From positions 59,967 to 123,966 of the forward strand of contig CAVUMZ010000010.1 of assembly GCA_963742705.1 (NCBI GenBank): a stretch of 64,000 nt of DNA. The letters are read 5' to 3'. This DNA comes from an uncultured Solirubrobacterales bacterium (GTDB taxonomy: Bacteria > Actinomycetota > Thermoleophilia > Solirubrobacterales > Solirubrobacteraceae). Positions 10,419 through 13,760 of the stretch are shown one piece after another (position 1 is the stretch's first letter; every line of letters starts with the position of its first letter). The notes under the pieces were generated by a model, which saw only the letters and a program-made list of their open reading frames with translations, had not been told where the DNA came from and did no database searches. The position numbers were made by a program, and so were the translations under genes.

Positions 10419-10598
10419 TCAGGCCGCGGCCGCGCCGGTCAGAGCCGAGCCGAGCAGGGCGAGGCAGAGCACGAAGAGCAGGATCGCCAGCACGATCAGC
10501 AGCGTCCGGTCGATCCCCCCACCACGGCCCCGGCCGGGGCCGCGACCCGTCCCGGCGTGCCCGGCGGTCCGATCCTCCGATGCGGCGCCCGAATGCAT
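10419..10598 (-). CDS. 59-aa single-pass membrane peptide, hypothetical
   Basis: Hand translation: MHSGAASEDRTAGHAGTGRGPGRGRGGGIDRTLLIVLAILLFVLCLALLGSALTGAAAA*. GC3 is high. Its ATG overlaps the TGA of the upstream cyclase-like gene (TGATG). Below the ORF-track size cutoff. Confidence 0.45.
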   Translation of the reverse strand: MHSGAASEDRTAGHAGTGRGPGRGRGGGIDRTLLIVLAILLFVLCLALLGSALTGAAAA

Positions 10599-11191
10599 CA
10601 GTGCGCCTCCCAGTCGAGGCGGTAGAGCTCGTGCTCGCCGTGGACGCCGCGGAAGTGGACGGCGCCGCGCTCCTCGAAGCGCAGCGACGCGTCGCCGGCC
10701 GTGTAGTCGCGCACCGCGGCCGAGACGAGGATCTCGCCGCCGGCGGCCTGGTCGGCGACGCGGGCGGCGATCACGACGTTGCGGCCGAAGACGTCCTGAC
10801 CGCTTGAGATCACGAAGCCGGTGTGGACCCCGGCGCGCAGCCGCAACCGGCCGACCGGGGCGACCTCGAGCCCCGAGATCGTCCGCTGGAGTCCGATCGC
10901 GCAGCGCAGGGCGGCATGCGAGCTCGAGAAGCTGATCATGACGGCGTCCTGCTCGCCCTTGACGACCTGACCTTCGTGGCTGGCGGCGGCCGCCTCGACG
11001 ACGGCGCGGTGGTTGCGCAACAGCGCGGCGCCGGCGTCGTCCCCGAGCGCGGCCAGAAGCGCCGGGCAGTCGGCGAGCGCTACGAGCAGCAGCGTCACCG
11101 CGCCGTCGGGCGAGCTCATCGCCCCGACGGGGAAGTCGGCGCCGCCGAGGGCGTCGGCGAGCACGTCCAAGGAGGTGGGCTCTCCGGCCAT
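10598..11191 (-). CDS. Stand-alone class III nucleotidyl cyclase homology domain with a substituted catalytic Asn
   Basis: Start at MAGEPTS (ATG 11191, overlapping the upstream stop as TGATG). It aligns by eye to the cyclase core: VTLLLVALADCPAL (for FxDxxGFT), GEQDAVMISF (for GDxxMxxF), GVHTGFV and GRNVVIAARV (for GDTVNxAxR; the Asn is replaced by Val). Confidence 0.7.
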   Translation of the reverse strand: MAGEPTSLDVLADALGGADFPVGAMSSPDGAVTLLLVALADCPALLAALGDDAGAALLRNHRAVVEAAAASHEGQVVKGEQDAVMISFSSSHAALRCAIGLQRTISGLEVAPVGRLRLRAGVHTGFVISSGQDVFGRNVVIAARVADQAAGGEILVSAAVRDYTAGDASLRFEERGAVHFRGVHGEHELYRLDWEAH

Positions 11192-11844
11192 CAGTAGGGG
11201 GGCAGCTCGCCGTACCAACGGCCGAGCAGGCGGAAGGCGGCCCAGAACGCCCGCTTGGCGCGCTCGTCGTCGAGGGCGGTGTCGATGTTGGGGACGTAAA
11301 GGGCGGCCATCGACGGAGTCAGCTCCTGAATCTCGCCCGGATCGGCCTCGAGCTGGCGGCCGAGGGGCAGCTCGAGGTCGTTGAGCACCTCGAGCGCGTC
11401 CTCGCCCATGACGACGACGATCTTCGGCTGGACGATGGCCAGCTCGTCGAGCACCCGGGCGATGCAGGCCGGGTCCGACAGGGCGGTGTCGGGCACGGGG
11501 CACTTGATCGCGAGCGTGCCGTAGACGGTCAGGGGGTCGATGTCGAGCCGGCGCAACGACTTCATCAGGGCGTTGCCGGACCGCCCGTAGAAGGCGACGC
11601 CCTCCTCGATCTCGGCCGGCCGGGGGGCGTACTTGAGCAGGAAGATGTCGGCCTGGGGATGCCCGGAGCCGAGCACCGGCGTCAGGGCCCCGCGGGGGCA
11701 GCCGGTGCAGCCCTGGATCTCTCGCGTCAGCAGGTTCAGCTCGCGGATCGCGCGCTCTAGATACTTCTCGCGGATCTCGTCGTCGATGGCCGGCATGCGC
11801 CCGATCTCTTTTGACCGGGGGTCGGCTTGTCCTTGGCCGTGCAT
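11191..11844 (-). CDS. Uracil-DNA glycosylase superfamily protein (family-4-like Fe-S scaffold) with non-canonical catalytic motifs
   Basis: Four Cys sit at family-4 positions (GCTGC, AIKCPVP, DPACIAR). Motif A reads LKYAPRPAEIEEGVAFYGRSG instead of GEAPGxxEDxxGxPFxGxxG. Motif B reads LYVPNID instead of HPS/HPA. Alternative start at ATG 11796 (MPAIDD). ATG 11844 overlaps the upstream stop (TGATG). Confidence 0.7.
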   Translation of the reverse strand: MHGQGQADPRSKEIGRMPAIDDEIREKYLERAIRELNLLTREIQGCTGCPRGALTPVLGSGHPQADIFLLKYAPRPAEIEEGVAFYGRSGNALMKSLRRLDIDPLTVYGTLAIKCPVPDTALSDPACIARVLDELAIVQPKIVVVMGEDALEVLNDLELPLGRQLEADPGEIQELTPSMAALYVPNIDTALDDERAKRAFWAAFRLLGRWYGELPPY

Positions 11845-13760
11845 CAGGACTTGCGCATCGCCCGGCGCACGCGCCGCTCCCGCCGAGCCCGGCGGGCGCC
11901 CGGGGGCGTGGCCTTGGTTTCGAGGAACTTCAGCGCCTGGACGTACAGAAGACTGGTCGGCTTGGTGACGATGTCGGCGTCGCGCAGCGACTCGAGGAAC
12001 TCGGTCGGCCCGTCGAAGTCGCGCATGCGGATGCGGACCGAGCCGAGGCCGGCGGCGACGTGCGAATCCGAACCGGCACCGGCGATGATCCGGTACTTGG
12101 CGGCAAACCGAGCCGCCTCCTCGTTGAACGATCCGATCGCCACCCGGGGATTGAACACCTCGAGGGCGTCGACATCGTCCAGGATCGTCAGCAGGTGCTC
12201 GTAGTCGGGCACGGCGTGCATGCGGTCGAACGGGTGCGGGACGTAGACGAGGCCGCCCTGGGCCTTGATCTCGGCGACCGTCTCGGCCAGCGTCAGGCCA
12301 CGGGGGATCTTGCGCTCGAGGAAGAGGCCGATTACCTCGCCCTGGCTGGCGGTCTTGACCTCCTCGGCGACGATCACCTTGATTCCGACGGCCTTCGCGG
12401 CGGCCTCGAGCGCGCCGGAGACCTCGTTGTGGTCGGTGATCGCGATCGCGCCGAGGCCCTGCTCGACCGCCGTCGCCAGCAGCACCTCGACGGGCGTGGC
12501 GCAGTCGGGCGAGTGGTCGGTGTGCATGTGCAGGTCGACGTCGATCAGCGGCCGGCCGGAGATCCGCCGGCGCACGTCCGGGTCGCCGGCGGTGTCACGG
12601 CGGCGGGCGGCGACCGCGCCGTAGACGGCCTCGAGCTCGCCGGCGACGCGGTCCCAGCCGAGCTCGGCCCGCAGCGGCCGGGCGGCGGCGCGCAGGCGGT
12701 CGCGCAGCGACCGGTCGGACAGAAGCCGGCCGAGCTGGGCGGCGAGCGTGTCGACGTCGCCCGGCTCGAACAGCAGGCCGCGCTCGCCGGTGGCGAGCAC
12801 CTCGTCGTAGACCGGCGTGCGCGAGGCGAGCGGGACGGCGCCGGCGGCGATCGCGCGCAGCAGCAGGTCGGGGGCGGGGCCGGATCCGTCGGAGGCGCAG
12901 ACGAGCACGTCGACCTCGGCGAGCAGGGCGTCGCGATCGAGCTCGGCCGGGTCGACGAAGCTGACGCGGTCGCGCAGGGAGGCGCGGAGCTGCGCCGAGG
13001 ATCCGCGCGCGGTGACGACGGTCGCCCGCCAGCCCTGCGCTTCGGCCTGGCGGCGGAGGCCGCGGAGGAAGAGCCGCATCGCTCCCCGCTCCTCCTCGTC
13101 GAAGTACGCGATATGGACCGGCTGCTCGTCGACGGATTCCGCGGAGCAGTCCCTGGTGGTCGCGGGCTGGGCGCCGGGCAGGATCACCCGGTAATCGGCC
13201 GGGAATTGGCGGGCCATGATCGCGGCGGTGGCGGCGTAGCTGGCGGTGCGGGCGTCCAGGCGGCCGAAGAACAACTCGACGAAGCGGCGGGCTACCTGGG
13301 TCGAGACGAGCAGGTCGTTGGGGACGTGGAAGCTGCCGATGTTCAGCGAGCGCGAGTGGCGCAGGGCGGCGCTGGCCAGGCTTGGGGCGAACGGCTCGTG
13401 GACGTGGACGAAGTCGAGCGGCACCAGGGTCAGGAGCTCCTCGACCGTGCGGGCGACATCGACCGGGAGCCCGGCCTGGCGGCGGGCGGTCGGGCCGGGG
13501 ACGGCGATCACCTCGCCGGCGGCGAACAGCGAAGGCTCGCCGCCGGCTTCCCCGAGTAGCGCCGCGGGCCGATCGCGGGCGGTGCTCAGGACCTGGCGCG
13601 AGGCGCGCACGAGGCGCGGCGACTCCGACGGGGCGACGATGACGACGCGGTGGCCGCGGCCCGACAACTCGGCGGCGACGCGCTCGACGTAGCGGTTGAG
13701 CTCCGAGCGCATCTCCCACGGGTGGGGCGTCACCTGGGCGATCGAGAAGCGCGGCTCCAT
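11844..13760 (-). CDS. Fusion protein: PimA-like GT4 glycosyltransferase (N-terminal) plus PHP-family metal-dependent phosphoesterase (C-terminal)
   Basis: 638 aa. The N-terminal part has LDFVHVHEPFAPSLASAAL and GSFHVP (compare PimA FDVLHIHEPNAPSL) and a GT-B C-lobe (LFEPGDVD). The C-terminal part has DVDLHMHTDHSPD, IAITDHN, EEV, VYVPHPFD and GSDSH, the PHP metal-ligand pattern. Confidence 0.85.
   Translation of the reverse strand: MEPRFSIAQVTPHPWEMRSELNRYVERVAAELSGRGHRVVIVAPSESPRLVRASRQVLSTARDRPAALLGEAGGEPSLFAAGEVIAVPGPTARRQAGLPVDVARTVEELLTLVPLDFVHVHEPFAPSLASAALRHSRSLNIGSFHVPNDLLVSTQVARRFVELFFGRLDARTASYAATAAIMARQFPADYRVILPGAQPATTRDCSAESVDEQPVHIAYFDEEERGAMRLFLRGLRRQAEAQGWRATVVTARGSSAQLRASLRDRVSFVDPAELDRDALLAEVDVLVCASDGSGPAPDLLLRAIAAGAVPLASRTPVYDEVLATGERGLLFEPGDVDTLAAQLGRLLSDRSLRDRLRAAARPLRAELGWDRVAGELEAVYGAVAARRRDTAGDPDVRRRISGRPLIDVDLHMHTDHSPDCATPVEVLLATAVEQGLGAIAITDHNEVSGALEAAAKAVGIKVIVAEEVKTASQGEVIGLFLERKIPRGLTLAETVAEIKAQGGLVYVPHPFDRMHAVPDYEHLLTILDDVDALEVFNPRVAIGSFNEEAARFAAKYRIIAGAGSDSHVAAGLGSVRIRMRDFDGPTEFLESLRDADIVTKPTSLLYVQALKFLETKATPPGARRARRERRVRRAMRKS

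Follow-up and report, generated by a model that had tools for sequence, protein, structure and literature searches.

We report on the tail of an inositol-lipid operon in a stretch of 64,000 nucleotides of contig CAVUMZ010000010.1, from an uncultured Solirubrobacterales bacterium (the stretch is called the window here, and the genome G000). Three successive genes lie on the minus strand at the 3′ end of this operon, behind the genes for a CDP-alcohol phosphatidyltransferase (CDP-OH-PT), for Ino1 and for a fusion protein, GT4::PHP. They encode a protein with the fold of the uracil-DNA glycosylases (UDGs), a cyclase-homology protein and a short membrane peptide (Table 1). A preliminary description, made from the sequence alone, had noted the three genes with a TGATG at each junction, and had quoted the motifs KYAPR, LYVPNID, GRNVVIAAR and ADCPAL. 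The coordinates can be read directly in the sequence, and every one of the motifs is present. At all three junctions the closing A of the TGA stop also opens the ATG that follows, an overlap of 1 nucleotide.

The GC content at third codon positions (GC3) is 0.93 in the UDG-like gene, 0.95 in the cyclase-like gene and 0.87 in the 59-residue open reading frame, with 0.95 in GT4::PHP. The Pfam model UDG (PF03167) matches the 217-residue protein with 44.3 bits (cutoff 24.3) and Guanylate_cyc (PF00211) matches the 197-residue protein with 36.9 bits (cutoff 21.9); the same search assigned no family to the peptide. The length of 197 residues is counted from the ATG at 11191, as the longest open reading frame of that frame begins upstream, at a GTG within the UDG gene. 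A scan for promoters and terminators found nothing relevant inside the operon tail.

For comparison we used three close genomes (G018, G022 and G009), three metagenome contigs (L149, L150 and L151) and a set of 80 species-level Solirubrobacterales loci fetched from GTDB genomes, in which the usable flank differs from count to count. Distribution was assessed in 41 relatives, where six families have a match to the UDG-like protein, and in a phylum sample of 301 genomes that includes 23 Thermoleophilia.

Table 1. Genes and gene junctions at the end of the inositol-lipid operon, in window coordinates.
Feature	Position	Strand	Basis or detail
GT4::PHP fusion gene, 638 aa	11844..13760	-	Pfam Glyco_transf_4, Glycos_transf_1, PHP, PHP_C; fusion kept class-wide
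UDG-fold protein, 217 aa	11191..11844	-	Pfam, alignment, AlphaFold2 model, Foldseek, synteny
Cyclase-homology protein, Ma1120-type minimal class III, 197 aa	10598..11191	-	PDB 4wp3 match, alignment
Single-pass membrane peptide, 59 aa; Gly/Arg-rich N-terminal part, then one transmembrane helix	10419..10598	-	Open reading frame, GC3, homologues
TGATG overlap, GT4::PHP/UDG-like	11842..11846	-	TGA 11846-11844, ATG 11844-11842
TGATG overlap, UDG-like/cyclase-like	11189..11193	-	TGA 11193-11191, ATG 11191-11189
TGATG overlap, cyclase-like/peptide	10596..10600	-	TGA 10600-10598, ATG 10598-10596

Fold and motifs of the UDG-like protein

Pfam, PDB matches and alignments agree with the preliminary description that both enzyme folds are real and that both proteins are off the canonical catalytic motifs. 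For the UDG-like protein, an AlphaFold2 model (predicted local distance difference test, pLDDT, 84.1; predicted template-modelling score, pTM, 0.81) was searched with Foldseek. All matches belong to the UDG superfamily, the top ones being 1ui0, 1vk2, 4zby and UdgX, and the best are of family 4, which bears out the fold. The likeness to the family 4 enzymes (UdgA; T. thermophilus 1ui0, T. maritima 1vk2, S. tokodaii 4zby) covers the alpha/beta fold, with Foldseek TM-scores of 0.65-0.76, as well as a shared G-x-G...A-D lead-in and a (P/A)F-x-G-x-x-G segment. It also includes the four cysteine positions of the [4Fe-4S] cluster, as the preliminary description had said: C46, C49, C115 and C127 align with the ligands of the T. 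thermophilus enzyme and of a family 4 paralogue in the same genome. The four are invariant in 59 Solirubrobacterales sequences, and the protein may bind a cluster.

However, the residues that characterize a family 4 enzyme are replaced at three places. Motif A, GE(A/G)PG, reads KYAPR, in which the Lys is invariant and the Glu position is occupied by Y, F, H or W class-wide. Motif B, HPS(A/S), reads YVPNID, with VPN in the place of HPS and V or T at the His position class-wide. The Asn of strand beta-2 that reads the uracil (N-x-V-K-C-R-P-P) is a Leu in YGTLAIKC; this position is Leu or Val in Solirubrobacterales, and the Asn is retained in some other Thermoleophilia. The replacement of the Glu and of the His, both seen earlier in the unaligned sequence, thus survives proper alignment. 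The protein scores 41 bits with the family 4 model TIGR00758, for which the cutoff is 125.3. The paralogue, on contig C17, reaches 206.8 bits with this model, and with its motifs GEAPG, NVLKCRPP and YHPAAAL it is a genuine family 4 UDG. Because of this canonical paralogue, ordinary uracil repair is covered elsewhere in the genome.

Relatives in other classes score in between (86.6 bits) and retain K-E/D, the Asn and T-H, so the form found in Thermoleophilia is derived, and its degeneration progressive. The alignment has the Glu, the Asn and the His lost stepwise. The ratio of nonsynonymous to synonymous substitution rates (dN/dS) is 0.15-0.31, indicating purifying selection, and the class has gained a conserved C-terminal tail, LGxW....PPY, that family 4 enzymes lack, along with the fixed place behind an inositol-lipid gene. 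In some orthologues from other orders (L035, L037, L038 and L039) the Fe-S cysteines are wholly or partly gone and the rest of the protein, the PPY tail included, is kept. Since lineages such as L035 and L039 have lost the ligands, the cluster would not be essential to the role of the protein.

A precedent for a non-excising member of this superfamily is UdgX of M. smegmatis, a family-4-like Fe-S protein with the UDG fold that binds without excising (PMC4787834). It matches the model with a TM-score of about 0.62 (6ail and related structures). Unlike UdgX, our protein scores only 38.5 bits with TIGR03914, where the cutoff is 189.95, and the KRRIH loop insertion is absent from it in the alignment.

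An acidic isoelectric point (pI) was considered as an argument against DNA binding and dropped: the orthologues have a pI of 4.5-6.1, but that of the canonical family 4 UDG of this genome is 5.56. A literature search found no paper on this UDG-like subfamily.

Taken from its sequence and predicted structure, the protein is very probably no uracil-DNA glycosylase, and most likely a non-excising pseudoenzyme with the UDG fold. That it is a binding protein we infer from the lost residues.

Neighbourhood of the UDG-like gene

The gene is old in its class. A counterpart that is 61-84% identical is found in 37 of the 41 relatives, across six families of the order, and all 23 Thermoleophilia of the phylum sample have one at E <= 1e-50. 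Outside Thermoleophilia the relatives in this sample are only 27-38% identical and come from five other Actinomycetota families. Altogether about 590 genome stretches encode a relative of the UDG-like protein. The names carried by near-identical database proteins put the genome in Solirubrobacterales (Thermoleophilia, Actinomycetota).

Its place is equally well conserved. In 68/68 of the species-level loci whose flank is long enough, GT4 and PHP lie directly upstream; Ino1 and CDP-OH-PT are found farther up in 63/63, and the order CDP-OH-PT, Ino1, GT4::PHP fusion, UDG-like gene is also found in other orders of Thermoleophilia. The coupling to GT4::PHP that had been described for this one genome therefore persists across an order, with a stop/start overlap of 1 nucleotide in 43 of 75 loci and a gap of 1-3 nucleotides in nine more. 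The nucleotides of this junction, CGCAAGTCCTGATGCAC, are near-invariant to the base across the order. The C-terminal tail of GT4::PHP just before it (window 11847-11915, and the corresponding position in L054-L133) is rich in Arg and Lys (...RRARRERRVRRAMRKS) and is conserved too.

The ATG at residue 1 of the UDG-like protein is kept in 71/79 loci. Many gene callers, and the 201-residue models in databases, begin at Met17 instead; we rejected this as a general start, as codon 17 is often no start codon. The AlphaFold2 model predicts disorder for the first 16 residues.

Past the UDG-like gene, the neighbours usually converge on it, which normally makes it the final gene of the operon. In other Solirubrobacterales different small genes come right after it: at eight loci a gene for a membrane protein starts at +3, and at six a protein of about 145 residues is encoded. 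A polytopic membrane protein of about 230 residues begins 3 nucleotides past the UDG-like stop in L054, L055, L062, L065, L088 and L092, and other lineage-specific tail genes are found in L069, L082, L093, L127 and L133. The operon tail thus seems to collect lineage-specific genes.

Another frequent neighbour is a gene for a TRAM/uracil-5 RNA methyltransferase (RlmD-like, RNA 5-methyluridine, m5U). It adjoins the UDG-like gene class-wide, e.g. in L033:4466-5851 (+), L034:6753-8126 (-), L035-L040 and 17 of the 20 loci L013-L032. In most Thermoleophilia lineages the two are convergent; in one family (f9) the UDG-like gene lies directly behind the RlmD-like gene and in the same direction. The window holds no copy of it.

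Other classes of Actinomycetota have UDG-like relatives just upstream of dnaK-grpE-dnaJ-hspR(MerR)-clpB (L041:4979-12621, L044-L047, L049); the dnaK of our window is about 12 kb away from the UDG-like gene. In L041 the UDG-like gene overlaps by 4 nucleotides the end of a gene for a Clp1-type P-loop protein (polynucleotide-kinase-like), which is itself preceded by a radical SAM gene. In a low-GC actinomycetotal genome, an IS605 OrfB/TnpB-type gene adjoins the homologue (L048:4527-5714, -).

These neighbours bear on a first alternative, that the protein remains catalytically active, as a glycosylase or another base-flipping enzyme, on a new substrate for which damaged or modified bases of DNA or RNA are candidates, and that its position behind GT4::PHP is inherited order only. 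In its favour, an RNA uracil-5 methyltransferase gene is a class-wide neighbour and is co-directional in one family (f9); on the other side, in most lineages that gene is convergent and not co-transcribed. The distant relatives that keep Glu/Asp, Asn and His, one of them next to the Clp1-type gene, point the same way, as does the fact that outside the class PHP and UDG-like homologues occur in disjoint families. Within the protein, the pocket segments K71, E81-G82-x-x-F85-x-G87, Y108-G109-T110 and M146-G147 do not vary, either in the class or outside it, and motif B keeps its Pro (xVP[ND]), as in family 2. However, three catalytic or recognition positions have been replaced at once, the replacements in motif A are variable aromatics (Y/F/H/W) and not a conserved new catalytic residue, the motif B loop carries invariant acidic residues (D188 and D192), and the Fe-S cysteines are lost in L035 and L039. 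On balance we consider this alternative rather unlikely, and prefer the pseudoenzyme.

The cyclase-like gene and the membrane peptide

The second gene of the tail encodes a cyclase-homology domain, by its matches to PF00211 and to PDB 4wp3. The latter is Ma1120, a minimal class III adenylyl cyclase of Mycobacterium avium (4wp3, 4wp8 and 4wp9) and the closest solved homologue (E 1.8e-30), to which it is collinear: residues 7-191 here correspond to 18-202 there. Both proteins are stand-alone domains of the same size with a short N-terminal segment, and they share the substrate-binding Lys and Asp and the Arg. In our protein VVKGEQD, GQDVFG and GRNVVIAAR align with K101, the Asp of GD, D157 and R168 of Ma1120 (numbered as in PMC4215837), which means that it retains the second metal-binding Asp, the substrate Lys and Asp, and the transition-state Arg. 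The cyclase domain of Rv1900c/LipJ (1ybt) is a more remote relative, with an E-value of 5.3e-14. The NCBIfam LipJ model gives 82.7 bits on its C-terminal cyclase part, far below the cutoff of 800 bits, and our protein, unlike LipJ, has no lipase domain.

Two departures from the canonical motifs had been reported, and they fare differently. The Val in GRNVVIAAR, at the position of the transition-state Asn, was read correctly as a residue. It is not a defect, however, as Ma1120 likewise has a small hydrophobic residue here: it is an active adenylyl cyclase with Ala164 at this position, and introducing the Asn (A164N) costs it its activity (PMC4215837). The Val is therefore a trait of the subfamily and no lesion. 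The sequence ADCPAL in the place of FxDxxGFT, on the other hand, is a real lesion. The first metal-binding Asp, in F-T-D-I-E-E of Ma1120, is an Ala in G000, G018 and L149-L151. In the sister lineage (G022 and G009) this Asp is kept and the substrate-specifying Asp is an Ala instead.

Could the protein nevertheless work as a normal adenylyl cyclase, like Ma1120? The metal would then be bound by an acidic residue nearby (a D at +3 or, among close relatives, D/D at +2/+3). Five of the six catalytic positions are in the state of Ma1120, which is itself active without the Asn, and the gene, which is intact, evolves under purifying selection (dN/dS 0.38-0.62, about twice that of the UDG-like gene). 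However, acidic residues at +2/+3 are found in Ma1120 too, in addition to its genuine metal Asp, so these are again a subfamily trait and no substitute. Class III cyclases generally lose their activity if either metal Asp is lost. The loss of the substrate-specifying Asp in the sister lineage also counts against an active enzyme, as it suggests relaxed catalytic constraint. An active cyclase is thus unlikely, and we infer that the homodimer would have no complete active site and would be catalytically dead or very weak.

Orthologues of this cyclase-like protein are found only in G000, G018, G022, G009 and contigs L149-L151. Of the 41 relatives, 4 have one. The next-best matches are domains with 38-39% identity, some of them in open frames of more than 1400 residues. 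The junction with the UDG-like gene is TGATG in G018, G022 and L149, and has a gap of 2 nucleotides in G009 (TGAccGTG) and in L150 and L151 (TGAtcATG). Ma1120 differs in that here the gene is appended to a lipid operon, with a coupled membrane peptide next to it.

The peptide has a still narrower range. The three metagenome contigs have a UDG-like protein with 92% identity to ours, and they carry GT4::PHP, the UDG-like gene, the cyclase-like gene and an open reading frame of 54-57 codons. This frame begins on the last base of the cyclase stop in each of them, as TGATG in L149 and as TAGTG in L150 and L151. The peptides share a start MHSGA..., a Gly/Arg-rich stretch with in-frame insertions and deletions (one of 6 codons) and a near-identical transmembrane helix, LLILLAIVLFVLCLALLGSALTG. 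In G000 a GGGAGG lies 7 nucleotides before the ATG. With frame, helix and overlap kept in three contigs, the Gly/Arg-rich single-pass peptide of the preliminary description holds up as a real gene; judged by its sequence, it is a genuine small-protein gene of the closest relatives only.

No copy of the peptide was found in G018, G022 or G009, where tblastn gave only low-complexity noise. An open frame with a transmembrane segment downstream of the cyclase-like gene of G018 was considered as a homologue and set aside, since homology could not be shown. In G022 the place of the peptide gene is filled by a gene for a 448-residue trypsin-like serine protease (L027:7318-8664, +; GDSGGP recognized by eye).

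One module or successive additions

The preliminary description had presented the three genes as one conserved trio, stoichiometrically coupled to the lipid-glycosylation enzyme. This part does not stand. Among the other Solirubrobacterales loci with flank, the cyclase-like gene follows the UDG-like gene in 0 of 76, and the complete set of four genes is found together only in G000 and in L149-L151. Because of this, and of the narrower range of the peptide, the trio is an evolutionary stack and not a single module. The stoichiometric coupling had been drawn from the stop/start overlaps only and is not supported.

It is accordingly very improbable that GT4::PHP assembles at fixed stoichiometry with the products of all three genes into a single complex devoted to the regulation of lipid glycosylation. 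In favour of such a complex, the four genes are joined by overlaps of 1 nucleotide in G000 and likewise in L149, and nearly so in L150 and L151, apart from their UDG/cyclase gap. However, the cyclase-like gene is missing from this position in all 76 other loci with flank, the peptide was not found in the close genomes that have the cyclase-like gene, unrelated genes fill the same slot in other lineages, and the cyclase-like gene evolves at about twice the pace of the UDG-like gene.

The explanation that we favour, with a probability of roughly 0.6 as a whole, is that three real, overlapping genes were added to an inositol-lipid operon at three different times and do not make up one functional unit. 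The oldest layer would be the UDG-fold gene, found throughout Thermoleophilia, a family 4 descendant that ceased to excise uracil. Its product would be a binding pseudoenzyme, made together with GT4::PHP by termination-reinitiation. The second layer would be a stand-alone cyclase domain of the Ma1120 type, acquired within this genus, that may bind nucleotides or serve in regulation, or function only within a heterodimer. The third would be the 59-residue membrane protein, which might, and here we speculate, tether the cyclase-like protein to the membrane.

Several observations weigh against this explanation. The family with the co-directional methyltransferase gene (f9) has its GT4::PHP fusion elsewhere, unlinked from the UDG-like gene. 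The complete genome G170 keeps the UDG-like gene without a close PHP orthologue (best E 9.7e-6); its locus (L037:4011-6600) holds CDP-OH-PT, a 397-residue GT4 protein without a PHP domain, and the UDG-like gene. Given these two cases, linkage to GT4::PHP is not obligatory. Proteins in which PHP and UDG appear fused (P0159, P0223, P0203, P0129; also P0217, metagenome calls) had to be discarded as frameshift or assembly artefacts, because real stretches alternate in them with out-of-frame stretches rich in Arg and Pro, which leaves no genuine PHP-UDG fusion. In the UDG-like protein the former active-site segments are the best-conserved parts, which would also fit a new catalytic or ligand specificity. 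Family 2 UDGs are also without the motif B His, and family 5 UDGs are without the polar motif A residue. As for the cyclase-like protein, acidic residues follow the lost Asp at +2/+3, a feature shared with Ma1120, and since the protein is still under purifying selection it may have residual activity, or activity as a heterodimer.

Co-occurrence of PHP and the UDG-like protein was also considered as support for a link. Both are near-universal within the class and their homologues lie in disjoint families outside it, so this pattern says nothing about a functional link, or speaks slightly against it. A literature search found no paper on a PHP-type phosphatidylinositol phosphate (PIP) phosphatase. 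A true accessory role of the UDG-like protein for GT4::PHP seems doubtful to us.

A more specific version of the stepwise explanation, which we put forward as improbable but worth stating, takes the UDG-fold pseudoenzyme off nucleic acid altogether. It would bind GT4::PHP, or a nucleotide or lipid ligand, and its Fe-S cluster would act as a redox or iron sensor that tunes inositol-lipid synthesis. In the lineage of G000 the dead cyclase and its tether would then provide a second input.

These results have some consequences for annotation. The database label ‘uracil-DNA glycosylase family 4’ is very probably wrong for the UDG-like protein across a class of abundant soil Actinomycetota. The cyclase-like protein also illustrates that calling a motif ‘substituted’ needs the right subfamily as reference, here Ma1120. 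For the biology of these bacteria, the cyclase and peptide layers indicate that the 3′ end of an operon gathers lineage-specific genes by way of stop/start overlap. The strongly conserved UDG-like protein, which has lost three hallmark residues, is under purifying selection and is coupled to a lipid enzyme, is a candidate for the neofunctionalisation of a DNA-repair fold. Should its proposed role off nucleic acid prove true, it would be the first protein with the UDG fold to function in anything other than DNA repair.

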